A stretch of DNA of 64,000 nucleotides from sequence record MZ358387; one strand, written 5' to 3'. Both the position numbers and the translations under genes were made by a program. Source of the stretch: Shigella virus Moo19. Under the pieces are notes generated by a model that saw nothing but the letters and a program-made list of their open reading frames with translations, did no database searches and was not told where the DNA came from. Shown in pieces: positions 130 to 40,919 of the stretch (position 1 is the stretch's first letter; each line of letters begins with the position of its first letter).

Positions 130-178
130 TTAACCCATATGCGTGTTCCATACAGGAACCAGATGCAGGAGTAATAAA

Positions 179-1396
179 ATGCAAACTTTTACCGCTAAAC
201 AGTACCTGGCTATCGATATCGCTAACAACTTTGGTCTGGATAAGAAGACCTGGGATGAGCGTTTGGCCTGGTTCGATGAGAACAAAGACAACCTCATGAA
301 CCAGTTAGAAGCAGCAGAGGAACCTGCTCTGTATTATGCAGGCGTTAAAGCCTATGAAGACATGCTGGCTGGTAAGCCTATTGGTTATACCATTGCACTG
401 GATGCTACTGCATCTGGTCTGCAATTACTGGCATGTCTGACTGGTGACCGTAAGGCTGCTCAGTTGTGTAACGTAGTGAACTACTATGGTAGCGAAGGCA
501 AGGCTCGTCGTAGCGATGCCTACACCGTTATCTACCGTACCATGCTGGAAGCCGTAGGTCAGTCTTCTCGTGTTAAACGTGATGACTGTAAGCAGGCTGT
601 AATGACTGCATTCTATGGCTCAGAAGCTAAGCCTAAAGAAGTGTTCGGTGAAGGTATTCTGTTGAAGACCTTTGAACACGTAATGGGTATCGAAGCACCT
701 GGCCCGTGGGAACTGAACAAGTTCTATCTGCAATGTGGTAACCCGGATGCAACCTCATATTTATGGGTTCTGCCGGATAACTTCCATTGTCAGATTAAGG
801 TAATGGTTGACGAAGTACAGACCATTAACTTTATGAACAAGCCATATGACATCATTCGCAAAGTACAGGGTACTGAAGAGAAGACTCGTATGCTCTCTGC
901 TAATACCACTCACTCAATTGATGGAATGGTAGTGCGTGAGATGCTGCGTCGTTGTAACTATGATGCTGACCTGATTACCTATGTAAAACAGCTTTGCTAT
1001 GGCGTACAGGAATCAAATGTATTCCTGCCAGAAAACGCTGAAATGGTGCATGAGTTATGGAACCACTATGAACGTAGTGGTTTCCTGTCCATGCGTATCT
1101 GCGATTATCTGGATGCAGGCTCCATCGCTCTGGTTGACCGTCAGGTCATCCTTGAGATGCTGGAGACTCTGCCTAAGAAGCCATTCAAAGTACTGACTGT
1201 ACATGACTGCTTCCGTTGCCATCCTAATTATGGCAATGACCTGCGTCGTCAATACAATCAGATTCTGTCTGACATTGCTAAATCCAACCTGCTGTCATTC
1301 ATTCTGTCTCAGGTACTGGGACAAGAGTTCACTGCTGGTAAGCTGGACAATGACATGTGGAAAGATGTCTTAGACGCTGAGTACGCATTAAGCTAA
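179..1396 (+). CDS. T7-like single-subunit RNA polymerase, catalytic subunit (N4 RNAP II large-subunit-like)
   Basis: AGGAG at 167-171 then ATG at 179. Palm motifs of T7-type RNAP are present: motif A 'IALDATASGLQ', motif B 'KQAVMTAFYGS', motif C 'VHDCFRC'. About 405 aa. Confidence 0.8.
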   Translation: MQTFTAKQYLAIDIANNFGLDKKTWDERLAWFDENKDNLMNQLEAAEEPALYYAGVKAYEDMLAGKPIGYTIALDATASGLQLLACLTGDRKAAQLCNVVNYYGSEGKARRSDAYTVIYRTMLEAVGQSSRVKRDDCKQAVMTAFYGSEAKPKEVFGEGILLKTFEHVMGIEAPGPWELNKFYLQCGNPDATSYLWVLPDNFHCQIKVMVDEVQTINFMNKPYDIIRKVQGTEEKTRMLSANTTHSIDGMVVREMLRRCNYDADLITYVKQLCYGVQESNVFLPENAEMVHELWNHYERSGFLSMRICDYLDAGSIALVDRQVILEMLETLPKKPFKVLTVHDCFRCHPNYGNDLRRQYNQILSDIAKSNLLSFILSQVLGQEFTAGKLDNDMWKDVLDAEYALS

Positions 1397-11430: not shown

Positions 11431-11564
11431 GCTGTTCAACCTAATATCCCCACTGATGTATACCTTCAATGATTTTCTTGGAACATACGGCACTGCTTTA
11501 GGTAGTGCCGTAGTTCTATTCGCTCTTTTCTATTAAAAGCTGCATTCTATCTGGAGAGTTAAAA

Positions 11565-14189
11565 ATGCAAGTCGCAGACAATCAAGAATTAACTACCTCT
11601 GCTACCCTCGGTGGCAAACAAGCTATCTCATTCGGTATCTCGGATGACCCGGCATTCTTTCACGTACTGAGTTCATCTCTGTATAACAATCCAAATCTGG
11701 CTGTTGTACGTGAAACCATCTGTAATCAGTGGGATGCTCACATTGAAGCAGGTAAGACACACCTGCCCGTGCTAATCGTCATTGATAAAGACAACTTTAT
11801 TACCTTTCGTGACTACGGTAAAGGTATCCCATCCGATAAGATTGGTGCTGTATATGCCACTTATGGGGCATCCACCAAGAAAGCTAATTCCAGTGTAACT
11901 GGTGGCTTTGGTCTGGGATGTAAATCACCATTCGCTTATACAGACAGCTTCCAGGTTACTTCATGGAACCAGGGTAAGATGTCTATCTATAACGTTACTA
12001 AGTCCTCGGTAGAGACTGACGGTAAGCCGGGTGTAATCCCAATTATTACGGACGTTGCCTCTGACGATACTGGTCTGGAAGTTAAATTCCAGCTTCGTCC
12101 TGAAGATGTGAACGAGTTCATTCGTTACATCGAATCCATTGTTTATAACGGTGAGATTAAAGCAATCCTGCGTAGCCCTAAGATGGTACTCAATCCTGAT
12201 GGTAACCGTACCATCGAGCTGCAAGACCGTAGTCTGCCTGTACTAGGTATGTCCTTTGAACCTGGTTCATATGACATTAACGGTACATGGCATCGTAGCT
12301 ATATGGGCAGCAGTGCTGTTTATGTACGTTATGGTAACGTAATGTATCCGGCTGTTGAAAGTCCGGCTACAGAGGAAGCACTGGGAGTTATTCATAACTT
12401 CATGAACATCATTGGTGCTAACCGTATTGTTGTTCAAGCTGCTCCATCTACTCTGGCTATTGCCCCAAGCCGTGAAACACTGTCGAACCAGAAAATGACT
12501 GACGATGGTATCGTAGACATCTGTGTTGACCTCGTTGACCGTCTGGAAAAGGAAATCAAAGCAGGTATCCCAATAGCTTTGAAAGAAATTGAAGAAGGTA
12601 TTGCTAAGTCTAATCACTTTAGCATGTATGACTGGGAAAATTTCTTTGATTACGTATCTAACACTCGTGTTAGAGGCTACATGAAGTCAAGCCTGTGGCG
12701 TAAAGCATCTCGCCACTATCGTAAACACTGGAAAAAACTGTCTAATAAACGATTCTTTGAACAAGAAGAGTTTAAAGGTATTCACTTTAGTCGTAGTCGT
12801 GCAATGACTGCACTAAAGCAATCCCGTTCAAGCCAAAGACAGGATTATTTTCTGAGCTTCCTGCAACGCTATGTTGTACTGCCTAAGCTGTATGAATGGA
12901 AGTTGTGTAAGCTGAAATGGTCTGGTCACGTTGTTGGTCGTTATCACAACTGCATGTTAGTAAAGCATGGGTTACGTACCTATATGCGTACCTATTCTGA
13001 CCTGGCTGTGCTTCAGACACTGGTAACCAAAAACGTAATCATTACCCGTCGTATGTCAGATTGTCATGAATCGTTTTATTACCATCCTGATTATCATGGT
13101 TCAGCATGGGAAGCTAAATGTGGTGGCAATAGTGGTGTATACACTACTAAAACTGCTCATGTTATTCACATTGGAGCCAAGAAAGGCGAAGCTGAGGAGG
13201 TAGCTGCTAAGTATACTGCTCTGGGCTATCAAATCATTGACCTTACCAAGCAAAATGATTGGGATAAACCAGCAGAAATGCGACGTATTGCTACTGCATC
13301 GGCTAATGCTAAACGTGCCAAGAACAAAGCTGATTTATTAGCTGCTGGCATGAAAGGCTCTGAACCAAACCGTTTAATTTCAATTAACTGTGTGCTTAAT
13401 AAGCGTAGTGGTATTGACCGTGATACCAAAAAAATCTATGAGTTCGATTATATCGACCCTGATTTTGCTGCACCAGAAAAGTGGAAACAATATGGTCACG
13501 TTGACGTAGAGAATCCACTCTATTACGTAGAACTTAAAGAGATTCGTTCTGGGCGTCCTGAACAGAATCCTGACATTGGTTCTATGCACCAATGGACTGA
13601 TTTAACTGATGAAGTTAAAGCAGTAACCGTTGTCTGCCGTAATAAAATTGAGGTTAACAAAGCCATTAAACGTGGTGCTGTGCATCTCGATGACAAACGC
13701 TACAAGGAAGTGCTGGACATTGTTAAATCCAAAGAGTTCAAGAAATACGTTACTTATGAACGTATTGGTATTCTTGAATATCTGAACATGGAGGATGGTC
13801 AGTACCAAGAGTTGCTTAAGCTGCTCGGCATTAAAGCTAAGGTATTCGATAATCTGGTTCTAAGACCAGAGTTCGAGTGGGCATATAAATTCCTCAATTA
13901 CATGGACTCCAGTAAGAAACGCAAATTGGTTTCTCTGGGTTGCATGGAAAAAGAGGAAGATATTGACCAGTACCTACCATTAACTCACTTGAAGACGTTC
14001 AAAAACCTTCAATCGTTACTGGATATCAAGGGTATCTTCCAAGTAAGGGAAGTAAGTGGTCCTGCTATGTATTACTCATCTGTGCAGGATTTAATCAACT
14101 GGCTTACTGAACACCCAGAGGATATTCCTGGGTATAAGATACTCATCCGTAACTGTTTAACTAAACGTAAAGGTATATACACAAGATGA
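11565..14189 (+). CDS. rIIA-like protein with N-terminal GHKL-type ATPase fold
   Basis: GGAG then ATG 11565. Bergerat-fold boxes 'RDYGKGIP' and 'GGFGLGCKS'. 874 aa, followed by a partner gene with ATGA overlap. Confidence 0.55.
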   Translation: MQVADNQELTTSATLGGKQAISFGISDDPAFFHVLSSSLYNNPNLAVVRETICNQWDAHIEAGKTHLPVLIVIDKDNFITFRDYGKGIPSDKIGAVYATYGASTKKANSSVTGGFGLGCKSPFAYTDSFQVTSWNQGKMSIYNVTKSSVETDGKPGVIPIITDVASDDTGLEVKFQLRPEDVNEFIRYIESIVYNGEIKAILRSPKMVLNPDGNRTIELQDRSLPVLGMSFEPGSYDINGTWHRSYMGSSAVYVRYGNVMYPAVESPATEEALGVIHNFMNIIGANRIVVQAAPSTLAIAPSRETLSNQKMTDDGIVDICVDLVDRLEKEIKAGIPIALKEIEEGIAKSNHFSMYDWENFFDYVSNTRVRGYMKSSLWRKASRHYRKHWKKLSNKRFFEQEEFKGIHFSRSRAMTALKQSRSSQRQDYFLSFLQRYVVLPKLYEWKLCKLKWSGHVVGRYHNCMLVKHGLRTYMRTYSDLAVLQTLVTKNVIITRRMSDCHESFYYHPDYHGSAWEAKCGGNSGVYTTKTAHVIHIGAKKGEAEEVAAKYTALGYQIIDLTKQNDWDKPAEMRRIATASANAKRAKNKADLLAAGMKGSEPNRLISINCVLNKRSGIDRDTKKIYEFDYIDPDFAAPEKWKQYGHVDVENPLYYVELKEIRSGRPEQNPDIGSMHQWTDLTDEVKAVTVVCRNKIEVNKAIKRGAVHLDDKRYKEVLDIVKSKEFKKYVTYERIGILEYLNMEDGQYQELLKLLGIKAKVFDNLVLRPEFEWAYKFLNYMDSSKKRKLVSLGCMEKEEDIDQYLPLTHLKTFKNLQSLLDIKGIFQVREVSGPAMYYSSVQDLINWLTEHPEDIPGYKILIRNCLTKRKGIYTR

Positions 14190-16276
14190 AAATCGAGCTG
14201 ATTTCAATAATCGCACTCGCCGTAGACAGCCGTAACATCACGCTGTGGAAACCTGATGGTTCCACGGTAGTCTTCCCACAAGGCGACCTTCGTGTCGCCC
14301 GTATCGTTGCCGAAGCTAAAGCCAAAGGTCTTGAACCAGGCAAGGTAATTGAAGTGAATATCGCACCAGAAATCGCAGGTAAAACTGAGTTCACTGATGC
14401 AGAGAAACACACTAACGGCCTCGTTAAATTCTTCAAAGTGGCTAAAGCCAAACTCAAAGAGTTCTTTGAAGACGAAACCGAAGTCCGTCCTGCACCACAA
14501 GTACCTGATATCAAAATGGGTAGCCCATGTCAGGTAATGGTTGATAAAGCAATGGATACCTTCCTGGCTATCCAGGCTAATCAACCAGAGGTAACTGTAG
14601 AGTATGGGGATTACGACCGCTGTAATCACCTGCTGTGGATTACCGGGTATGACAAAGAGCATGACCGTGTTGGCTTAATTCGTTTCATTAGTGAGACTCT
14701 GAATTACAGCCCGGAACGTGCAACTACTCATGCCAATCTGGAATGGCCTATTGCCCTGAAAGCTGTGTCTGATGATGCACTGGTAGAATTTACCAATCGT
14801 CTACAACAACTTAAGGGTGTGCACTGGGCAGTTACTAATCGCAGTGTAACGCCGGATGCTTATGAAGAACCTAAAGTTACTCAGGACAAACCTGCTGAAC
14901 CAACTAAGCAAGAAAAACTGACTGCTGCGTCTGAGAAGCTGAAAGCACTGGGTGCTGTAAGTACCGATGATGCTTCCTTCCACGAAGATGTAAAAGAAGA
15001 CGAAGCAATCGTAGCTGTTACGAGTGCTGGTGTAGTCCCTGGTGTTGAAGGGCTGCAACGTCATCTGCGTCAGGCAAGTAAGCTGAAAGACTACAAGGGC
15101 TTTAACCGTTTCCTTGAGCGTCTGGCTCCGGTAGTTAAAGACCGTCGTCACTCAGTTGAAGACCTGATGAAATTCATGGAAAAAGCAGAACTTCCTATCG
15201 CTGATGATGGTTGTATTCTGTTCCTGAAACGCCTGAACTTCAAAGAGACTGGCGTAGATGGTCGTCGTGTATTCGTGGATTGTCACTCCGGTAAAATTAA
15301 ACAATGGGTTGGCATGAAGGTACAGGTTCGTGAAGACCTGGTAGACCCTGACCGTCGTAAAGACTGTTCTAACGGTCTGCACGTTGCTGCTATGAGCTAT
15401 ATTACTGGCTTCAGCGGTAATGTAACCATCCTGGGTAAAGTAGCACCTGAAGACGTATTTGCTGTTCCTGAGTACAGCACCAACAAGATGCGAGTAGCTG
15501 CATATCACATCATTGCTGAGTTGCCTGAAAAAGAACGTAGTAACGTCTGTAATGGCGTTTACCTGTCCAAAACGGACGTAGGTAAAAAACTACTTAACGA
15601 TGCAATTGTGGGCAACCACACTGCACCAACAGACCTGGTAATGGTTGGTGGTCATATGGGCAGCAACCTGAAATACACCCAGTTAACTGGCGGTACTGTA
15701 GAGCAAATCCGTACCACTGCATCGAAAGAAGCATTGGATATGGAAGAGTCTCTGTCACCAGAAGCTCTGAGTGCTGAACCAGTGAAAGCACTTGATGTCA
15801 AACCCGTAAACAAACCAGCGGTTGAAATTAAACCTGCTAAGGCTCCTACTGTGAAAGAACAAATCCTGGAACTGGTAAAAGAGTTCCAAAATGCAACTTC
15901 CCCGGAAGATAAGCTGGCTGCTGCTGACCTGCTGGTCGAACTACGTGGTAAGGCTAAGAAGCCGTGGGGTGCATTCGGCGTCGATAGCTCTATCGTCGAT
16001 GAGATTGCCAAAGTACGTTCCACTCAGGAACGTCTGGAAGAAGCTAAAGCCGAACCAGTGAAAGTAAGCAAGCCCGTTAAGGCTGCTGCTAAACCTGGTA
16101 AGGGCAAACATGCTGATACCATCCGTAGCTGGCTCAATGATAGTGGTATGTCTGACTATCAGAAAGCCCACTCTATTCATGACCTGAAACGTGCTGCTAA
16201 GAAATCTTATGCTGCACTGGGTCTTACTGAAGAAGAGTGCAAAGCTATTGACAAGCTTAAGCATCATCTGAAGTAA
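14186..16276 (+). CDS. rIIB-like protein (by size and position next to rIIA-like gene)
   Basis: ATGA-coupled to the upstream gene; 696 aa. No diagnostic motif recognised. Confidence 0.4.
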   Translation: MKIELISIIALAVDSRNITLWKPDGSTVVFPQGDLRVARIVAEAKAKGLEPGKVIEVNIAPEIAGKTEFTDAEKHTNGLVKFFKVAKAKLKEFFEDETEVRPAPQVPDIKMGSPCQVMVDKAMDTFLAIQANQPEVTVEYGDYDRCNHLLWITGYDKEHDRVGLIRFISETLNYSPERATTHANLEWPIALKAVSDDALVEFTNRLQQLKGVHWAVTNRSVTPDAYEEPKVTQDKPAEPTKQEKLTAASEKLKALGAVSTDDASFHEDVKEDEAIVAVTSAGVVPGVEGLQRHLRQASKLKDYKGFNRFLERLAPVVKDRRHSVEDLMKFMEKAELPIADDGCILFLKRLNFKETGVDGRRVFVDCHSGKIKQWVGMKVQVREDLVDPDRRKDCSNGLHVAAMSYITGFSGNVTILGKVAPEDVFAVPEYSTNKMRVAAYHIIAELPEKERSNVCNGVYLSKTDVGKKLLNDAIVGNHTAPTDLVMVGGHMGSNLKYTQLTGGTVEQIRTTASKEALDMEESLSPEALSAEPVKALDVKPVNKPAVEIKPAKAPTVKEQILELVKEFQNATSPEDKLAAADLLVELRGKAKKPWGAFGVDSSIVDEIAKVRSTQERLEEAKAEPVKVSKPVKAAAKPGKGKHADTIRSWLNDSGMSDYQKAHSIHDLKRAAKKSYAALGLTEEECKAIDKLKHHLK

Positions 16277-16287
16277 CCTGTTCAAGA

Positions 16288-16319
16288 ACCCTCAGTTGAA
16301 ATATACTGAGGGTATCTTT
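16288..16319 (+). terminator. terminator-like hairpin after the rIIB-like gene
   Basis: 9-bp stem accctcagt/actgagggt with 8-nt loop, followed by 'atctttg'. Confidence 0.35.
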
Positions 16320-30412: not shown

Positions 30413-33400
30413 TTAGTTTACCAGATTCATCCAAGGGTTGAGGTTATGAGCACGTAAGCCCTGACCCAATCCGATAGAGTAATCCAGTCTACCATCAGCA
30501 GCAGCCGAGAACAGGTTATCCTGTAATGGCAGACCAACGTTACCAAACATGGTAGGAGTTGGAGCCAGCATAGCCATAGCTGCATGAACAGGGTTATTAC
30601 GAATCATGGACACTGCAACTTTAGTAGAACGAATCTTAAAGTTATAGAACCACATCAGACCCATGCTTTCCATGTAACCACGGAAACGACCCGGCAGACG
30701 GTCATAGTTAATGAACTCTTCGGTAACACGACCCAGAGCTTCTTCCTTACTCTTACCTTTACGCTTAGTCAGTTCATCATAGATGATTGCTTTAGCAATA
30801 AAGTCAGAGTACTCAACCGTCTTCTGGATACCCTGGAACAGAGCAGTATCCTTAGTGATAAGTGCATAACGACCAGCAGTTTGCAGCTTCTTAGGCAGCT
30901 TATCTGCTAAACGCTGCATGTACTCCTGTACCTTACCATCCGGGATTAACAGGTCATCACGAGAGATACCAGCATCAGCAATAGAAGAGAACTCACCAGC
31001 TTCCAGCAAAGGCCAGATACTCATACGCTTATAGCTATCATTGATGGACTGAATCTCAGCTTTCAGTTTACGAGCCTGGTTCGGATTAGTAGTTGCACGA
31101 AGTTCTGCTTCAGCATCAACCTGGCGAAGACGAGACTTCATATACTGGTTAATCTCAGCAGTCTTCTGAGGGATACCTTTAGCAATATCCTTAACTGGAA
31201 CACCACGGGCAACCATCTGATAGAGGTTAGCCAGGAAGTTCACAGCAGGAACCACGAGAGACTTGACCACGATTAAGGTCTTAGCCTCACGTACAACCGT
31301 CTGAGTGATATTCTCACCCTGCATAAAGTATTTGTATGCACGGTTGCCAAATACGCCCAGCATTGCTTTCTTGAAGGTATCCAAAGTCTCAGGTGACCAA
31401 CGAGAGTTACCAGTCCATACATCACCAACAGAAGCAGCACGATAACCAAGTGCATCATTCAACATGTCACGACGTACCCACAGTTCACCATTACCAAACA
31501 GTGACTCAGCTTTCTGACGAGTTTCTGCATTCATCAGACGCATAGCATCAGCAGTAACTGGGTCAAGTTTAGAACCAAGAAGGTTAATGTACTGGCTCTT
31601 ATTGCTGGTAGAATCTGCCATGTCCTTCTCGTACATAGCGTGAAGATTTTCAATCAGAGCATCGTTAAACTTCTGGGCTTTAGCTTCTTCTACCTGACGA
31701 CCTCGCCATACACCAATTGCTTTAGCAAGGTTATCCTCACCAGCAATGTGAGTCAGCATGTTAGGGTCAATAGAGTGCTCATAAGCAACCACACGACCAT
31801 TGCCATCATAGATAGGCATCAGTGGTTCATTACCACGTTCACCCTTCGCCAGAGCTTTGGTGATACGGTCAACGGAAGGCTTGTCAGTAATACGACCAGC
31901 AACCATTGTTCCCATTGTGAAGCCAGTACCAACATCCACACCACCAGCAGTATTACGAACGTTCTGGAGAATACCCTGTGAGTATGGAGCACGAGCAGCA
32001 ACCGGGCTGAAGTAGTAACCACGACTACGAGTACGTTCACCAGAGCTACCCTGATAACCAGCAATACGAGTGAATGACTTCTCACTCAGTTCGTTAAACT
32101 GGCTGTCTTCTGCAACAATCAGGTTAACACCCTGCTTAGTCTCAGAAGGAATGTAGCCTTTGTAGTGGTTCAAACGAGCACGGTCATCATTCTGTGCTTT
32201 ACGTTTCTCTTCCACACGCTGGCCTACCAGATAGGAAGTGACAAAGTCCATACCTTCGGTTTCAGTCTGAGCCAGGGAAGCTAATGCCTCACGGTCAGCC
32301 TGACTCATTGCTTCGATGGCATACAGAGTAATCAGCTTGTCTAAGGTGTCCACATCAACGGTAGATTTAACGCTGGTACGCTCACCTAACAGACGGGAGA
32401 TTGCCTCAGCATTACGCAGCAGGTTGTTACCGACAGTACCATTAATCATGTACTGAGCCAGTTGCTTAGACTTACGGTTAATCAAAGGCCAGTTACGTCC
32501 TGCCTGATTCTGGAGGTCAGCTTCCAGCTTATTAACCAGCTTATCCATTTCTTTCTGTGAAGACAGCAGGTCACGAATTTCACCCAGACTCATGGTGTCA
32601 CGCAGTACAGCAAGGTCAGTTTTACCCATACCAGTGTGCATAGCTTTCCACTCTGCATCAGTCAGCTTACGGCTGAACTTAGAAGCAATAGTGGTAGGCA
32701 GATGCTCACGGAATTGCTGACGGTCAGCCTGTACCTGAGAGCGAACAGCTTTAATCATGTCATAGACAGAAGCATTCGACTTAGTACGACCTACGATGTC
32801 ATTAACCAGGTCATAGAAAGGTTGCCATGCTTTTCCCTGGTTCATTGCAGCCATAACACCCTGTGCAACTTTCTCACCGTTCTTCTCAGTAGCAATAGCA
32901 GCTACCAATTGAGCAGCATGAGCAGTTGCCTTAACCAGTGGGTTCTTAGCATTAGCAGCAACATCACGAGCAGTATCCAGTGTGGCATCAGCCAGACGTT
33001 CTACACCATCAACAATATATTGGTTAGCACGGTCAATCATATTCCCAGTTGGGGTAGCAACAGAGTCATAGAAGGACTGAGCATTCAGGCTGGATTCCAT
33101 AATAGTTTCTGCCAGAGCATCAATACCTTCCTGAACGTTAGTTGCTTTGGTATCACCAGCAACACGCTTGTTCAGGCTATCCATTGCAGCTACGCCAATG
33201 TTAGTCAGCATTGCATCAATAGTATTACCGGATGCTTTATCTGCTTTCATAACAGGCATGTCAGTCAGTACGTTACGTACCTCTTCGCTTACCATTGCCA
33301 GACCAACAAAGGTAGGCAGTAAGGAAGAACGACCCTGAGCATCAAACTCAATATTGTTAGCACCCATCAACGTATCGAACTTCTGTTGAGCATAGTAACG

Positions 33401-36400
33401 GTCAGCAGGGTTAGTGCTGTTCGGGTCTGCCATGAAGTCTTCTACTTTCAGGTTCTTGGTAACGTGAGTGTAATACTCCTGAGCACGAGCCAGAGCAGCA
33501 GGATGAATTGCAGCCTCAGTTGCTAGTGCAGCAACAATGTTGGTGAACAGACGACGTTCTTGCATGTTCATAGTAAAACCATGCCCCTGAACATCACGAG
33601 TTACCTTAACTGCATTCACTACTGCGTCAGAGAATTTACCCTTACGCATATGTTGCTGTACCGGGTCATTACCCAGGTAGTTCGTAATGAGACGGTCAAA
33701 GGTTTGACCCAGTGAAGTAAGACGGTCATTGTTGCCATAAGCAGTGCTATGGAACAGGGTAGCCTCAGCAGTAACCGGAGCAACCGGAGGCTGTGAACGC
33801 ATCACTACAGCAGAGTTAAACAGCAGACCGGAGAACATATCTTCACCGTAAGCAGGGGCTTTCTTACGACCAAAAATGAGGCGTTTAATTGCTTCATAAA
33901 CATCTTTAACCATCCTGGTAAGAGCAGTGGTTTTCTTCTGCTTCTTAATCAGTTCATGGTTGGTTAAGCCCCATGCCATGTACTCATTCAGTGCAGCAGC
34001 TTTAGCCATTGCTGGGTCAATGAAACCGTTGGACAGATGACCATTGATAGTATCCAGTGCATCAGCGTAAGCCTCACGCATAGCCGGAGTATCTTTGGAT
34101 ACATCCAGACTACGGAACTGTTCCATCAGATTCTCGATGTTCTGTACAGCTTCATTGGTCTGGCCTTGATAGTGGTCAAGTACAGTCTCAAAAGTAGAAG
34201 CATGAACCAGTTCATGAATCAAGGTTTCCATTGATGGGCTAACCAGGTAGACAGTCTTATCTGCAAAGTTAGTCCAACCATAGATATTACCTGCATTTGC
34301 AGCTTCAATATCTTCTGGAGCAGGACGCTCTACGTTACGTTCCATTGCATACTGGTCAATCTGGTTCACGTTACCGTAAACAACCTTGTAGCCTTTAGCA
34401 GCCAGTGACTTCTGAATCTCATTCAGTACAGCAGCCTGTTCAACAGGAAGGTTGGACTCTTTAGCCAGTTTGTTAATAGCAGTCTGAGACAGCACACGAA
34501 CACCAGACTTCAGAGCACGGCCTACAGTATCAAACTTATTAGTATCGGCTACTGGAGTCTTCTCAGCTTTACGAGCCTCTTTACGAGCCTGCAATTCAGC
34601 ATCGAATAGCTCATTCAGTTTTGCTACTTGCTGGTCAACAGTCAGACCATCCAGAGAGATATTACCGTTGTTCACATAAGGGGAACCAACAGCAGCCATC
34701 TGGTCAACAGTAGTCTGTACCTGGTTCATTACCTTGTGACGGATATCGACACCCAGAGCAATGTTACGCAGGTTACGCTCAATAAGATTAACACCTGCTT
34801 TCTCAATCATATCAATCTTATACTGCCTGTCACCATCAACACGACTGATATGAGAAAGTTGTTCAAAATCCAAAGCAGAACGGGCAATACTATCAATTGC
34901 TTCATCTGATAACTTATTGAAATCTACATTTTTTACAAACTTAGAGAAGGAGTCATACACATTCTTGATAGGGTTACCCTGCCATGAAGTGTATACAGCT
35001 TCGTTAGCCTTACGGCTTGCATCAGTGATGTCATTGATACCGATGTTCATACCATCAAAGATTTTGAGAGTATTTTTCGGTGCACCTTTCATAATAGAAA
35101 GGGTCTGCATCATCATGCCGTCACCAGTACCAATCGTCATGAAAGGAATACCAGCAACACCAGCTTGTGACGGTGCATAGATGCTCATTGGCACACGCAT
35201 ACGGTCATCAAAGTTGGTAGCCAGAACCTGGTTAGCAACATCAGTATTCTCAGAACCAGCAATGTAGAAAGTCTGGGAACCAGTCTCAATCATTGGAGCT
35301 AAGTCAGACAGTGAAGCCTGAATATCGTTAAGCTCTTTCTGAGTTAAGAAGTCACCCTTCTTCCAGTTAGGGTCTTTTTCTTTTTCTGCCAGCTTCTCCT
35401 GGACACGTTGCTGGAACATGTCTTGCAGAACCAGAGACTGAATCTGGGTAGCTTTCTGAAGCTGTTCAGTGGAGTGCATCAGCCCTTCACCAACAGTATT
35501 CTGAATACCCTGTCTCATTGGTTCAACGAAAAAGTGCAGCATGTTCTCTTGCAGAGACTTCAGTTGCTCACCTTTGACAGTGAACTTCTGAGGGTCAATC
35601 TTGCCAGACATAGCAGTACCAGTGTCTTCAAGAGACAGTTTACCTTTACGCATAACTGGAACAGTACCAGTCAATGCTTTCATGTCTTCAATGAAACGAC
35701 CGAGCATAGCCTCAGCATCGGCCTCAGATGCTGCCTGCTTGCCGAACATTGCCATAGCCGGGGAAATGTCCGGGTTCTGTGCACGGGCTTGCAGAACGTC
35801 GCTGAAGCGTTCGTAGATGGCATCAGTAATTGCACTCACCATCTTGCCTGCAATACCACGAGCACCGGAACCATAAATGGTAATGGTCAGTGGGTTCTTG
35901 GCAATGCCACGTTTCAGTTCGAGGTTGCCTTCTTCATTGATGTTATAGTCAGGAATGAACAAGTCCATCAGAGAGGACAGATGATTCATCTGAGTATTAA
36001 CAGCCGGGTTATTGGCATAGGTATTTCGCAGGTTAGTCAGTGCAGCTTTCAGACCGTTAGTGGATGCTTCGTACAGGTCAACGCTATCGTCAATAGAACG
36101 ATGTTCGTTCATCGTCTTACCAGCACGACCAAAGAATAGACCACCCTTAGCAGTATTCTGTACCCATTCTTTGGTGAACTTACCACCAGTCATCAGCATC
36201 ATTGCGTTAATCGGACCGTTGGTTACACCATCAGCCTCAACGTACAGTGGAGTGTTGAACTTAGACTTGTCTTCAGCATTCAGGTAACGGGCATACTCCA
36301 TCAGAGCCATGAGAGCTACGAAGGATTTATCACCACCCAATGCAGTATTCAGAATCTCAACAGAGTTATCTGGCAGGTTCCCAGTTTTATCGAAATCAAC

Positions 36401-39400
36401 CATCATATCGACAGCAGGTTTCAAATTGCCTTCCAGTGCAGCAGTCAGTTTTGCTGACATTGCCTCACGAGACATGTTGTGAACCTTGATGCCCAATGCC
36501 TGAGCCAAGCCAACCTGGAAATCAGAGAAGGTCTGTGAGTTTTCATTGGACAGGTCAATAGTAGAAAACGTAGGCAGAATAGCTTCACGAACCAGCTTAC
36601 TGGACTGAGGATTATTCTTACCAAGCATCTGCATACGACCAACACGAGTCATGTTGTAGGCATAGTGGATTGGAGTTTCCAGTCCGTTTTCCTGTGCACG
36701 AGTTTGCTCTACCACACTAAACAAGGAATCATAAGCCATAGCTACTGACAGGTTTTTACCTTCCAGTGACTTAGCAGTATTCACATTCAGCAGTTCAGGA
36801 TTAAGCGTACCAGCACCCATCAATTCCAGAATCTTGTCACGACCCATAGCCTCATAGAAGTTAACCATAGGTTCATGAATACGGAACTCAGTAGCCTGTT
36901 CTGCTTTCAGAGCAGCTTTCTGTTCCGGGGTATTCTTAACAGCAGGGTTGCGTAACTGAGTCTGAGCCACAGAAGGTACGTCGTCACCGAAGTACATTTT
37001 CTCTTCTGGTTCTACCAACACAGCTTCTTCAATTGCTGTAGGGAATTTATTGATAGGGTCATTGTCTGCCAGCTTATCAATGGTATACAGACCAACAGTC
37101 TTAGTGGAGTCTGGGTCAATTTCAGAGACATCTAGCATAGTCTCAGTAACTTCACCTGCTTCAATAAGAGCAGACAGAATCTCAGTTGCCATAGCAACAG
37201 GGATACCTTTGGTATAACCCAGTGGTGCATTAGGGTTACGGTCAAAGCCCCAGTAAGATTCAATTTTCTGAGCCAGTGAGTTAGTAGCTTCAACGAGAGT
37301 CTGAGCATTCTCAAACATCTCAACTACACCTTCCGGTAACAGAGCCTGTTCAATACCAGTAATAGCAGCCACGTCTTTAGCATCTTTAACGGCAGCATTC
37401 TGAGTAGCAGTCAGTCGCCATTGCAGACCAGCAAGTACGGCAGTTTCAAGCAGAGAATCGTTGAACTTAAAGCTATTGCCATCTGGTTCAACAATATTCA
37501 GCAGCTTACCACCAACCCAACGGTTAGCTTCAGTGCCCTCAGCAAAACGCTTACCTACGTTCTTGTTAGACAGGAACTTAGCCAGTCGGTCATTCAGAAT
37601 GGATTTAATGTTTTCACCCGTGTTCATCAGGTCTTTATAACGACCAGATACATCAGGGGTAAGAGCAGTATTCTCACTCTGAGTAAACGTTTCGAAACGT
37701 GCATTAGAAGACAGAGCCTGACCAATATCTTTCATTGGAGACTCGGAACCAGTGGTACGAGACTTAGGTTCAGCAGGTAATGAGTAAGCAATCTTGAGGT
37801 AATTTTTTACCCCAGGCTGGCTGACATCAGTACTCCCAACCAAATCAGGATAAGCAGCGTCAATACCACTACGAGTGGATTCCACTTCATTAGTAGTTTC
37901 CTCAGTATTTTCAGTAACATCCTCGATGCTACCCTCATTGATGAGGGTAGCATCCTTTGCCTTTTCGGATTGAGGCTTAGTTACTTTCTCTGGTTCTGCC
38001 TTAGACTCAGTAAAAGGAGCACTATTTTCTACCGTCGATTCCCTATTAGGAGTTACAGTAGGTGCAGCCTCCTGAGTTTGTGCAGGAGTTTCGTCAACTT
38101 GATTCACTGGTTCATTAGTCTGTTGGGATTGAGCAGCGTCAAGATTGCCCTGACGGAACTCTTTAACCACCTGGGCAGCAGGCTTGTCCAGACGTGAATC
38201 CAATGAGGTAACATTGATATGAGAAACGTTAAGCTCCGGGTAAGCCGTAGCAAGTGCATTAGCAATATCAGCTACGGTTTTGGCTTCCAGTCCTACTTGC
38301 TGGGCAAACTTAACCGACTTGGTATCGTAAGGATTAACACCGAGTCCAGTACGACTTCTTACCCATTCACGGGAAGGGGTGAGGGCTTGGTAATGGACAG
38401 ACTTATTCTTATCCGCATTCCCAGAAATCAGATGTTCATTCAACGCTCCGACCTTGTTCTGCATGTGCTGGGCGAACTGCATAAAGTCGCTCAAATAAGC
38501 GGAAGCCAAATCGAAGTTACCAGAGTTATACGCAGACCGAATGCGTTTAGCATGTTGCAACGCAGAGTACTGGCCTTCATTAGAACGAGACTCGTCGGTT
38601 TTAATCTGTTTACCCACAATGTCTTGAGGCCGTAAACCAAGCTGTTCAGCTTTGGTATCAAACTCACGTGCTCCCTGTAATAGAGCAGCAGCGGATTGCA
38701 GGGCAGCACGTTGACGATTGTTCAACGTAATCTTGCCTTCACTCGCATGTTTCAGAACCATGTTCACTGAATCAGCGTCCAGTACTTCCGGGCTTACGTC
38801 AGCAGCCATTGCTACGTTGTTAGCCTGATTCTGGTCTGCTACATCTTCGGTCACATTCAGATTACCTTGTTCAGCTTGTTCCTGAATCATGGAATGAATG
38901 GCACGGAATGCACGAAGTACCTTTGGAGTATTCTGGATGTTAGCCATCAGACCCGAATACTGGTCGAGCACAGCATTAGCAGGACTATCTTTAGGCAGAT
39001 TGTTCAGTGCAGCAGGGTCACGGTTAACGAAGTCTTCCATCTGCATAACCATGTCGTACATATTGGCAGCAGCTTCCATCATCTGGTTCGGGTCTTCAGT
39101 AGTGTTAACTACATCAGCCAGTTTCTGGATTACCTGAACTCGGTCAGTGGAACCGTTAACAGCTTCCTGAACCACAGGAGAAGCATCAGCAAATTCTTCC
39201 GGGTTAATACGGGTAGCATTAACCAAATCACTTGCATACTGGTGTGCAGCAGCCTTCTCTTCAGGAGAGATGTCCATTGCTTCAACAGCATCAGCCATAG
39301 TTGCCTGAGCAGTATCTGCTTGTGCAGCAGCTTCCTGAGCAGCCTCAGCTACTTTAGCGTCAGCAACAGGAGAAGCCTCTTCATTGCGTCGTGCAACTTC

Positions 39401-40852
39401 TTCACCACGTTGAACCAGGATATTGGTAATAGGTGAAGCAGCTTTAGCTACGACATTACCAGCAGCGTTAAGACCAGCCAGGGTAGTACGCAGAGCAGGA
39501 CCAGCAGCAGCACTTGCAGCTTTAACAGCAGAGCCAGGAGCTTGAGCAACTCCAGCAGAGCCGAAGCCATAGAGTGCACCCAGACCAGCTTGCTCACCCA
39601 CACCTTTGAGTGTGTCACGGGTAGCATCAACGTTACTCCGAATTGCACGGTTCTGTGCATACTGACCAGTACCAGACTGAATACCTTCTTCCACAGTCTC
39701 ACGAAGCATGTTGGAACCAGCACCAGCAAGTGAACCTACTTTCAGTGGATTCAGTTCAAACTTGGATACCAGTGGACCCGTTGCAGCAGCAACCGGAGCA
39801 GTGATAGCAGCAGCATCAATACCTGTTTCAGAAGCAGTCTGACGACGAGCTTCATCTGGAGAAAGACCATCTTTGATATGTTGCTGATAAACAGGAGACT
39901 TAGCAGCCAGTTCTTCATGAGACATTTTCATAATCTCAGAAGCAGTTTGCTGATAAGCACCACCAGCTTCCATTGTGCCAATAGCAATGGCAGCAGGAGC
40001 AACCTTAGAGGCAGCATTAACCAACTGTGCAGGACGATGGCCTAATTCAGCAGCAAGTGCAATTGCACGAGCAGCTTTTTCACCACCCATTACAGCACGA
40101 CCTAATGCAGCAACCCCTTTAATAAGAGGACCACCCGTAAACAGTGAGCCTACTCCTTCGCTCAATCCATCTGTTGCAGCCATACCAGTGTCAAGAGTGT
40201 TGGCAACAGAATCATAAGCGTCACGGCCAATACGAGAAAGAGAAGCGACCAAATCACTCTCGCCATCTTTAATATCCTGTTCGTATAAACGCTGGTTTTT
40301 CTGAGCAGATAGCTGGTTCTGGTTCTGAACTACTTTACGGGAAAGATTTAAAGCATCAGACTGAAGACCATGAACACCTTCATTCAACCAGTCCATGCCA
40401 CTAGCTATGGTAGCACCAGCATTATCGTTGATAAGACCTGTTCCAAGAGAAGCAATGCCCCCAAGGGTATTAGCAACACCAAGACCAACACCAGAAAGAG
40501 AATCACCAATTGCTTCTGCATTCGTTCTCTCTCTGGATAAGTCCTGACGAACAGAATCGGCTGCATTAGCACGGCTATTAAGAATACGAAGACCTTCTTC
40601 GGTTCCATACTTAGCAATAAGTTCCATTGGGGAGGCTTGAGTAAAATCAGCCTGAAGTGAACCTGGTTCGAATGCACCAATGCCGAGATTACCTACCCGA
40701 CCTGTTTGAAGGTTATAGGCAGTATCTGGGGTGAGTTGGAAAGGGTTATACCCTTCAGCAGCTTGCTTCTGGGAGGTTGCAGTAGAGACATCGACTTGCT
40801 TAGCATTAGTGATGCTGTCTGCGAAACCTGCCAGTCTGTCAAATGTTGACAT
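30413..40852 (-). CDS. giant virion RNA polymerase (N4 gp50-like)
   Basis: ~10.4-kb ORF. Central region carries T7-like motifs ('YVEADGVTNGPINA', 'KNPLTITIYGSGARG'). ATG at 40852 has AGGAAA RBS; ORF-track start 40894 is GTG. Confidence 0.8.
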   Translation of the reverse strand: MSTFDRLAGFADSITNAKQVDVSTATSQKQAAEGYNPFQLTPDTAYNLQTGRVGNLGIGAFEPGSLQADFTQASPMELIAKYGTEEGLRILNSRANAADSVRQDLSRERTNAEAIGDSLSGVGLGVANTLGGIASLGTGLINDNAGATIASGMDWLNEGVHGLQSDALNLSRKVVQNQNQLSAQKNQRLYEQDIKDGESDLVASLSRIGRDAYDSVANTLDTGMAATDGLSEGVGSLFTGGPLIKGVAALGRAVMGGEKAARAIALAAELGHRPAQLVNAASKVAPAAIAIGTMEAGGAYQQTASEIMKMSHEELAAKSPVYQQHIKDGLSPDEARRQTASETGIDAAAITAPVAAATGPLVSKFELNPLKVGSLAGAGSNMLRETVEEGIQSGTGQYAQNRAIRSNVDATRDTLKGVGEQAGLGALYGFGSAGVAQAPGSAVKAASAAAGPALRTTLAGLNAAGNVVAKAASPITNILVQRGEEVARRNEEASPVADAKVAEAAQEAAAQADTAQATMADAVEAMDISPEEKAAAHQYASDLVNATRINPEEFADASPVVQEAVNGSTDRVQVIQKLADVVNTTEDPNQMMEAAANMYDMVMQMEDFVNRDPAALNNLPKDSPANAVLDQYSGLMANIQNTPKVLRAFRAIHSMIQEQAEQGNLNVTEDVADQNQANNVAMAADVSPEVLDADSVNMVLKHASEGKITLNNRQRAALQSAAALLQGAREFDTKAEQLGLRPQDIVGKQIKTDESRSNEGQYSALQHAKRIRSAYNSGNFDLASAYLSDFMQFAQHMQNKVGALNEHLISGNADKNKSVHYQALTPSREWVRSRTGLGVNPYDTKSVKFAQQVGLEAKTVADIANALATAYPELNVSHINVTSLDSRLDKPAAQVVKEFRQGNLDAAQSQQTNEPVNQVDETPAQTQEAAPTVTPNRESTVENSAPFTESKAEPEKVTKPQSEKAKDATLINEGSIEDVTENTEETTNEVESTRSGIDAAYPDLVGSTDVSQPGVKNYLKIAYSLPAEPKSRTTGSESPMKDIGQALSSNARFETFTQSENTALTPDVSGRYKDLMNTGENIKSILNDRLAKFLSNKNVGKRFAEGTEANRWVGGKLLNIVEPDGNSFKFNDSLLETAVLAGLQWRLTATQNAAVKDAKDVAAITGIEQALLPEGVVEMFENAQTLVEATNSLAQKIESYWGFDRNPNAPLGYTKGIPVAMATEILSALIEAGEVTETMLDVSEIDPDSTKTVGLYTIDKLADNDPINKFPTAIEEAVLVEPEEKMYFGDDVPSVAQTQLRNPAVKNTPEQKAALKAEQATEFRIHEPMVNFYEAMGRDKILELMGAGTLNPELLNVNTAKSLEGKNLSVAMAYDSLFSVVEQTRAQENGLETPIHYAYNMTRVGRMQMLGKNNPQSSKLVREAILPTFSTIDLSNENSQTFSDFQVGLAQALGIKVHNMSREAMSAKLTAALEGNLKPAVDMMVDFDKTGNLPDNSVEILNTALGGDKSFVALMALMEYARYLNAEDKSKFNTPLYVEADGVTNGPINAMMLMTGGKFTKEWVQNTAKGGLFFGRAGKTMNEHRSIDDSVDLYEASTNGLKAALTNLRNTYANNPAVNTQMNHLSSLMDLFIPDYNINEEGNLELKRGIAKNPLTITIYGSGARGIAGKMVSAITDAIYERFSDVLQARAQNPDISPAMAMFGKQAASEADAEAMLGRFIEDMKALTGTVPVMRKGKLSLEDTGTAMSGKIDPQKFTVKGEQLKSLQENMLHFFVEPMRQGIQNTVGEGLMHSTEQLQKATQIQSLVLQDMFQQRVQEKLAEKEKDPNWKKGDFLTQKELNDIQASLSDLAPMIETGSQTFYIAGSENTDVANQVLATNFDDRMRVPMSIYAPSQAGVAGIPFMTIGTGDGMMMQTLSIMKGAPKNTLKIFDGMNIGINDITDASRKANEAVYTSWQGNPIKNVYDSFSKFVKNVDFNKLSDEAIDSIARSALDFEQLSHISRVDGDRQYKIDMIEKAGVNLIERNLRNIALGVDIRHKVMNQVQTTVDQMAAVGSPYVNNGNISLDGLTVDQQVAKLNELFDAELQARKEARKAEKTPVADTNKFDTVGRALKSGVRVLSQTAINKLAKESNLPVEQAAVLNEIQKSLAAKGYKVVYGNVNQIDQYAMERNVERPAPEDIEAANAGNIYGWTNFADKTVYLVSPSMETLIHELVHASTFETVLDHYQGQTNEAVQNIENLMEQFRSLDVSKDTPAMREAYADALDTINGHLSNGFIDPAMAKAAALNEYMAWGLTNHELIKKQKKTTALTRMVKDVYEAIKRLIFGRKKAPAYGEDMFSGLLFNSAVVMRSQPPVAPVTAEATLFHSTAYGNNDRLTSLGQTFDRLITNYLGNDPVQQHMRKGKFSDAVVNAVKVTRDVQGHGFTMNMQERRLFTNIVAALATEAAIHPAALARAQEYYTHVTKNLKVEDFMADPNSTNPADRYYAQQKFDTLMGANNIEFDAQGRSSLLPTFVGLAMVSEEVRNVLTDMPVMKADKASGNTIDAMLTNIGVAAMDSLNKRVAGDTKATNVQEGIDALAETIMESSLNAQSFYDSVATPTGNMIDRANQYIVDGVERLADATLDTARDVAANAKNPLVKATAHAAQLVAAIATEKNGEKVAQGVMAAMNQGKAWQPFYDLVNDIVGRTKSNASVYDMIKAVRSQVQADRQQFREHLPTTIASKFSRKLTDAEWKAMHTGMGKTDLAVLRDTMSLGEIRDLLSSQKEMDKLVNKLEADLQNQAGRNWPLINRKSKQLAQYMINGTVGNNLLRNAEAISRLLGERTSVKSTVDVDTLDKLITLYAIEAMSQADREALASLAQTETEGMDFVTSYLVGQRVEEKRKAQNDDRARLNHYKGYIPSETKQGVNLIVAEDSQFNELSEKSFTRIAGYQGSSGERTRSRGYYFSPVAARAPYSQGILQNVRNTAGGVDVGTGFTMGTMVAGRITDKPSVDRITKALAKGERGNEPLMPIYDGNGRVVAYEHSIDPNMLTHIAGEDNLAKAIGVWRGRQVEEAKAQKFNDALIENLHAMYEKDMADSTSNKSQYINLLGSKLDPVTADAMRLMNAETRQKAESLFGNGELWVRRDMLNDALGYRAASVGDVWTGNSRWSPETLDTFKKAMLGVFGNRAYKYFMQGENITQTVVREAKTLIVVKSLVVPAVNFLANLYQMVARGVPVKDIAKGIPQKTAEINQYMKSRLRQVDAEAELRATTNPNQARKLKAEIQSINDSYKRMSIWPLLEAGEFSSIADAGISRDDLLIPDGKVQEYMQRLADKLPKKLQTAGRYALITKDTALFQGIQKTVEYSDFIAKAIIYDELTKRKGKSKEEALGRVTEEFINYDRLPGRFRGYMESMGLMWFYNFKIRSTKVAVSMIRNNPVHAAMAMLAPTPTMFGNVGLPLQDNLFSAAADGRLDYSIGLGQGLRAHNLNPWMNLVN

Positions 40853-40919
40853 AGCTTGTTTCCTGTTCAAACTTATATCTATAAGAGAACTCACTGTACA
40901 TTAAGTGAGGGTAAGAAAA

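Follow-up and report, generated by a model that had tools for sequence, protein, structure and literature searches.

A divergent rIIA–rIIB gene pair in the N4-like Shigella virus Moo19 as a probable counter-defence module

We analysed a 64,000-nucleotide stretch of DNA from Shigella virus Moo19 (record MZ358387; hereafter the window), which carries an rIIA–rIIB gene pair on its plus strand. The upstream gene, rIIA (11565..14189, +), starts with ATG and encodes a protein of 874 aa (99.7 kDa). Immediately downstream, rIIB (14186..16276, +) also starts with ATG and encodes 696 aa (76.8 kDa), as the original prediction of an 874-aa protein translationally coupled to a 696-aa partner had stated. 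The two frames meet in an ATGA stop/start overlap (14186..14189, +), read directly from the sequence, in which the rIIB ATG and the rIIA TGA share 4 bases; the junction reads ...CAAGATGAAAATC. An identical 4-nt overlap is present in a metagenome contig (L008, 92% identical). A Shine–Dalgarno sequence, GGAG (11553..11556, +), lies 8 nt before the rIIA ATG. For rIIB we found AAAGG alone, which is weak and distant from the start and therefore consistent with translational coupling through the overlap. From this arrangement we infer that translation of rIIB is coupled to that of rIIA.

Both ends of the pair are marked by strong hairpins. The 134-nt gap 5′ of rIIA contains a hairpin followed by a T-rich tract (11479..11518, +), with a terminator-like match at 11486..11512 that has a 12-bp stem; the RNA fold of 11431..11564 reaches −34.8 kcal/mol (z −3.4), and none of 200 shuffled sequences was as stable. 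This hairpin resembles the terminator of an upstream unit, marking the start of the rII unit. A second terminator-like hairpin, CCCTCAG-N10-CTGAGGG followed by TATCTTT (16289..16312, +), begins 13 nt past the rIIB stop and folds at −26.4 kcal/mol (z −6.1). The flanked pair sits within a block of nucleotide-metabolism and replication genes, with ThyX upstream and a helicase and DNA polymerase downstream. Scanning for sigma-70 promoters returned 5 sites against 11.8 expected from shuffled sequences, that is, fewer than chance; because N4 middle genes are transcribed by a phage-encoded RNA polymerase, the scan is uninformative. Antisense reading frames within rIIA and rIIB, such as 14204..14662 (−), were judged spurious, given the strong conservation of the sense frames.

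The genome had been described as N4-like, and the wider gene content of the window upholds this. A 3,493-aa reading frame (30413..40894, −) lies where related phages have ‘virion RNA polymerase’ annotations, a subunit of an N4-type RNA polymerase is found at 143..1396, and homologues of N4 gp29–gp38 surround the rII pair in the same order as in N4. The nearest database records belong to Gamaleyavirus and Enquatrovirinae. The phage is thus an N4-like podophage of the family Schitoviridae, subfamily Enquatrovirinae, close to Gamaleyavirus.

Profile searches gave a clear answer on the identity of the pair. The original prediction had named the absence of rIIA/rIIB profile homology as the finding that would refute it; instead, RIIA matched the RIIA family phrog_2979 at E 1.4e-236 and RIIB matched the RIIB family phrog_2886 at E 3.8e-201. 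RIIA also matched the family of T4 rIIA itself, phrog_612, over residues 14–429 (E 3e-63), and RIIB matched four further RIIB families, including phrog_609 (1.7e-28); T4 rIIB matches the same PHROGs as the window RIIB. By BLASTP, RIIA residues 17–330 aligned to T4 rIIA 14–305 (4e-27, 29% identity) and RIIB residues 290–449 to T4 rIIB 159–310 (2e-15, 28% identity). A local Pfam-A scan of RIIB did not return PF26926 (Phage_T4_rIIB), but precomputed matches to this family exist for all listed RIIB homologues, including one that is 98% identical. An exact-sequence look-up for the window RIIA found no record, and full-length searches of both proteins against PDB chain sequences gave non-significant matches only. 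The overlapping frames, the GHKL boxes and the N4-like setting are far beyond chance, and by sequence the pair is clearly an rIIA–rIIB module orthologous to N4 gp33/gp34. The identification is correct but ordinary: annotations of N4-like phages already include the pair, and public records name the orthologous genes rIIA and rIIB.

RIIA, the orthologue of N4 gp33, G7C gp33 and T4 rIIA, begins with a GHKL ATP-binding domain followed by a transducer-like second domain (11622..12569, +; residues ~20–335), a portion shared with T4 RIIA. In the predicted structure, residues 1–335 form a GHKL-plus-transducer module of the Hsp90/topoisomerase II/MORC/MutL class, and the nearest folds are Hsp90, ParE, the T6 topoisomerase II ATPase, MORC and MutL. 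The GHKL boxes noted in the original prediction are invariant across 35 RIIA homologues with identities down to 31%: the N box E50-x3-N54-x2-D57 (11712..11735, +), the G1 box D83-x-G85-x-G87 (11811..11825, +) and the G2 box G113-G-F-G116-L-G118 (11901..11918, +). Consistent with this, Pfam HATPase_c_3 matched residues 47–155 above its cut-off (E 3.8e-8; 33.9 bits against 25). NCBIfam returned matches to HSP90, sacsin and Topo VI-B, all of them sub-threshold. RIIA is a predicted ATPase that would bind and hydrolyse ATP and dimerise. The remaining ~540 residues (336–874; 12570..14186, +) are helical and alpha/beta; they are variable, evolve fastest and are conserved among N4-like phages only, with no BLASTP similarity to the T4 RIIA C terminus and no Pfam match above threshold in segments 336–450, 450–600, 600–700 or 690–874.

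RIIB, the orthologue of N4 gp34, G7C gp34 and T4 rIIB, has a more composite layout in its predicted structure and conservation profile. An N-terminal beta/alpha domain (14186..14473, +; residues 1–96) is conserved in Schitoviridae RIIB and missing from T4 RIIB. The core (15053..15532, +; residues 290–449), homologous to T4 RIIB 159–310, is the most conserved block of the protein: 6,096 representatives of 50%-identity clusters match it (E<=1e-3), and its model matched no solved fold in the PDB. Across 60 sequences, the invariant residues are D365, C394, S395, G397, L398 and H399, with H367 almost invariant; they include the motif C394-S-N-G-L-H399 (15365..15382, +), and T4 RIIB keeps the same core motifs (DCHS ... 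CSRGLH), including the equivalents of D365 and H367. The C-terminal region (15851..16270, +; residues 556–695) is predicted to be helical, is basic (pI 9.4) and contains two copies of a K-x-A-K-K-(P/S)-(W/Y)-x3-G motif. No Pfam family scored above threshold in segments 1–115, 140–240, 241–500 or 541–696, and NCBIfam gave no match to RIIB; sub-threshold segment matches to Ish1/HeH, in the C-terminal region (E 0.044), and to GIIM (E 0.009) were taken as noise or weak leads.

RIIB also contains an inserted domain (14627..14839, +; residues ~148–218) modelled with confidence between disordered linkers. The model has a three-stranded sheet and three helices in the order beta-alpha-alpha-beta-alpha-beta, the fold of the ribosomal bL12 C-terminal domain and of ClpS. 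We found this insert only in N4 gp34 and in the nine homologues most similar to the window RIIB (67–98% identical). It has no match in Pfam, and a literature search on rIIB and L7/L12 turned up no report of such a domain.

The function of the pair can be approached through experiments on its relatives. Silencing either RIIA or RIIB of N4 by CRISPRi-ART made no difference on Rex-free E. coli and lowered plating efficiency on cells that expressed lambda RexAB; N4 and four other phages were likewise unaffected by knock-down when Rex was absent, and the rII genes of T4 also counter RexAB (PMC11879866). In T4, insertions in rIIA or rIIB were depleted only with RexAB (bioRxiv 10.1101/2025.11.20.689424). 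The defence-evasion role put forward in the original prediction thus gains support from the N4 orthologue. By analogy with N4, we consider it very probable that the window pair is an N4-type rII module serving as an accessory counter-defence against RexAB or a similar prophage exclusion system, and this is the best explanation of the data as a whole; with only 40–48% identity to the N4 proteins used in those experiments, the window pair may nevertheless have a different specificity. Moreover, RIIA and RIIB share 52% and 66% identity with G7C, against 88% for ThyX and 87% for the helicase, and a pair that diverges faster than the flanking replication enzymes fits a role in host interaction.

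We propose that both proteins are made from one bicistronic message at a roughly fixed ratio, coupled at the ATGA overlap, and that they contact each other and act as one complex. Within this complex, RIIA would be an ATP-driven dimerising clamp, as are the ATPase domains of Hsp90, MutL, MORC and topoisomerase II, and the variable C terminus of RIIA together with RIIB would supply target binding. The module would be dispensable on naive hosts and needed on hosts carrying lambda RexAB or a similar prophage exclusion system, where it probably prevents or tolerates Rex-triggered membrane depolarisation. The pair may have a role in membrane integrity, as was originally suggested. No transmembrane helix was predicted in RIIA or RIIB (maximum Kyte–Doolittle 19-residue mean 1.27), so any membrane role would be peripheral or indirect; on the same scan, we rejected either protein as an integral membrane protein.

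An alternative that we consider unlikely is that RIIA is a topoisomerase-II-like or MutL/MORC-like clamp, with RIIB as its partner, that works chiefly in DNA transactions, either on the DNA of the phage or at a replication complex attached to the membrane, and that the Rex sensitivity of mutants is secondary, arising from altered replication intermediates that trigger RexA. The location of the genes between ThyX and the helicase and DNA polymerase fits this idea, as do the fold neighbours of RIIA, a match of RIIA to a topoisomerase II large-subunit PHROG (7e-7) and the position of T4 rIIA beside the topoisomerase genes 60 and 39. The N terminus of T4 RIIB matches a DNA-binding-domain family (phrog_867, 4e-5), and the window RIIB ends in a basic region with a weak HeH-like motif, although this match is far below threshold. 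However, Pfam detected no Toprim, nuclease or other DNA-gate domain in either protein, and we rejected RIIA as a topoisomerase because searches of RIIA, RIIB and the sub-segments of both revealed neither Toprim nor gate domains. Furthermore, the lack of a knock-down effect without Rex in N4 and four other phages (PMC11879866) indicates that replication in the laboratory does not depend on the pair.

It is also quite unlikely, in our estimate, that the bL12/ClpS-like insert has widened or changed the target of rII in this lineage, perhaps by binding a translational GTPase, a Clp unfoldase or a defence sensor, instead of Rex or alongside it. The confident model of the fold, the confinement of the insert to N4 gp34 and the nine nearest relatives of the window RIIB, and the disordered linkers expected of a tethered binding module all speak for such a change. 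Its support, however, is fold similarity: an insert profile search of PDB sequences placed L7/L12 first and in the correct register at E 0.11, and Foldseek matches ranged from E 0.15 to 0.6, none of which is significant, and a small alpha/beta fold of this kind serves many purposes. Moreover, N4 carries the insert yet still requires rII against RexAB. It is likewise improbable that the insert is a functional mimic of the factor-binding domain of the ribosomal stalk or of the ClpS adaptor and so tethers the RII ATPase complex; the tethering partner could be a translational GTPase, a Clp unfoldase or a host sensor monitoring such proteins. If true, tethering would extend the reach of N4-type rII modules past RexAB, and the insert would be a first molecular handle on RII binding partners.

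PHROGs and RefSeq call both families ‘lysis inhibitor’, a name derived from the rapid-lysis plaques that T4 r mutants form. That the pair is a lysis-timing module delaying lysis independently of host defence is nevertheless highly improbable, because the name is historical and papers on the pair treat it as anti-RexAB counter-defence (PMC11879866; bioRxiv 10.1101/2025.11.20.689424), plating of N4 on Rex-free hosts was unaffected by knock-down (PMC11879866), and a hydropathy scan found no holin-like or antiholin-like transmembrane segment in either protein.

As an rII pair, the locus carries little weight, being of a kind routinely annotated in N4-like phages and with an anti-RexAB role already demonstrated for N4; it adds a divergent member, 40–70% identical to its GenBank relatives. 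For the molecular mechanism of rII, a problem that goes back about 70 years to Benzer, the domain maps of RIIA and RIIB are of some use, and they point to three targets for mutagenesis and pull-down: the predicted GHL-type clamp ATPase with its invariant catalytic boxes, the RIIB core with its invariant Cys/His motif and no solved structural relative, and the bL12/ClpS-like insert, which is confined to N4 and its nearest relatives. Where N4-like coliphages are used in phage therapy, those with an intact rII module are predicted to tolerate lysogens that carry Rex. T6 RIIB has been reported to be sensed by bacterial gasdermin systems, and by comparison an intact rII may also carry a liability to RIIB-sensing defences.

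Compared with known systems, RIIA stands apart from the GHL-class GHKL ATPases that it resembles in fold. Its identity to Hsp90, GyrB/ParE, phage topoisomerase II ATPase, MutL and MORC is only 12–16%, and it lacks their Toprim, endonuclease, CW or client-binding domains; it belongs to none of these families. In T4, rIIA (725 aa) also lies immediately upstream of rIIB (312 aa), but T4 RIIB is less than half the length of the window protein: both the C-terminal helical region and the bL12/ClpS-like insert are missing from it, and an HTH-like N terminus takes the place of the N-terminal domain. RB43 encodes RIIA and RIIB as a single polypeptide (AAX78523, 1,049 aa) rather than as two genes; this natural fusion matches the window RIIA at 7.5e-26 and RIIB at 4e-16, and argues that both proteins act together.

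Among N4-like phages, the correspondence extends along the whole of both proteins. N4 (NC_008720) gp33/RIIA is collinear over its full length (40% over 874/841 aa), as is gp34/RIIB (48% over 696/696 aa), the neighbours from gp30 ThyX to gp39 DNA polymerase are the same and both RIIB proteins carry the insert. By contrast, the window RIIA is 33 aa longer than N4 gp33, the sequence divergence is large and the 4-nt overlap compares with 1 nt in N4 and a 4-nt gap in G7C. The closest GenBank relatives are Gamaleyavirus (G7C-like) phages and the unannotated Escherichia phage Jgk1, with amino-acid identities of 52% (RIIA) and about 66–67% (RIIB) over the full length of G7C gp33/gp34 and of 63% (RIIA) and 70% (RIIB) to Jgk1. 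These phages share the gene order of the window and the hairpin after rIIB, at which position G7C has an annotated stem_loop. The window phage is nonetheless distinct from them, at ~77–82% nucleotide identity over 58–75% of the compared segments, whereas the metagenome contig ENA ERZ28615549 is far more similar, with 92–94% nucleotide identity and 93% and 98% identity in RIIA and RIIB, respectively.

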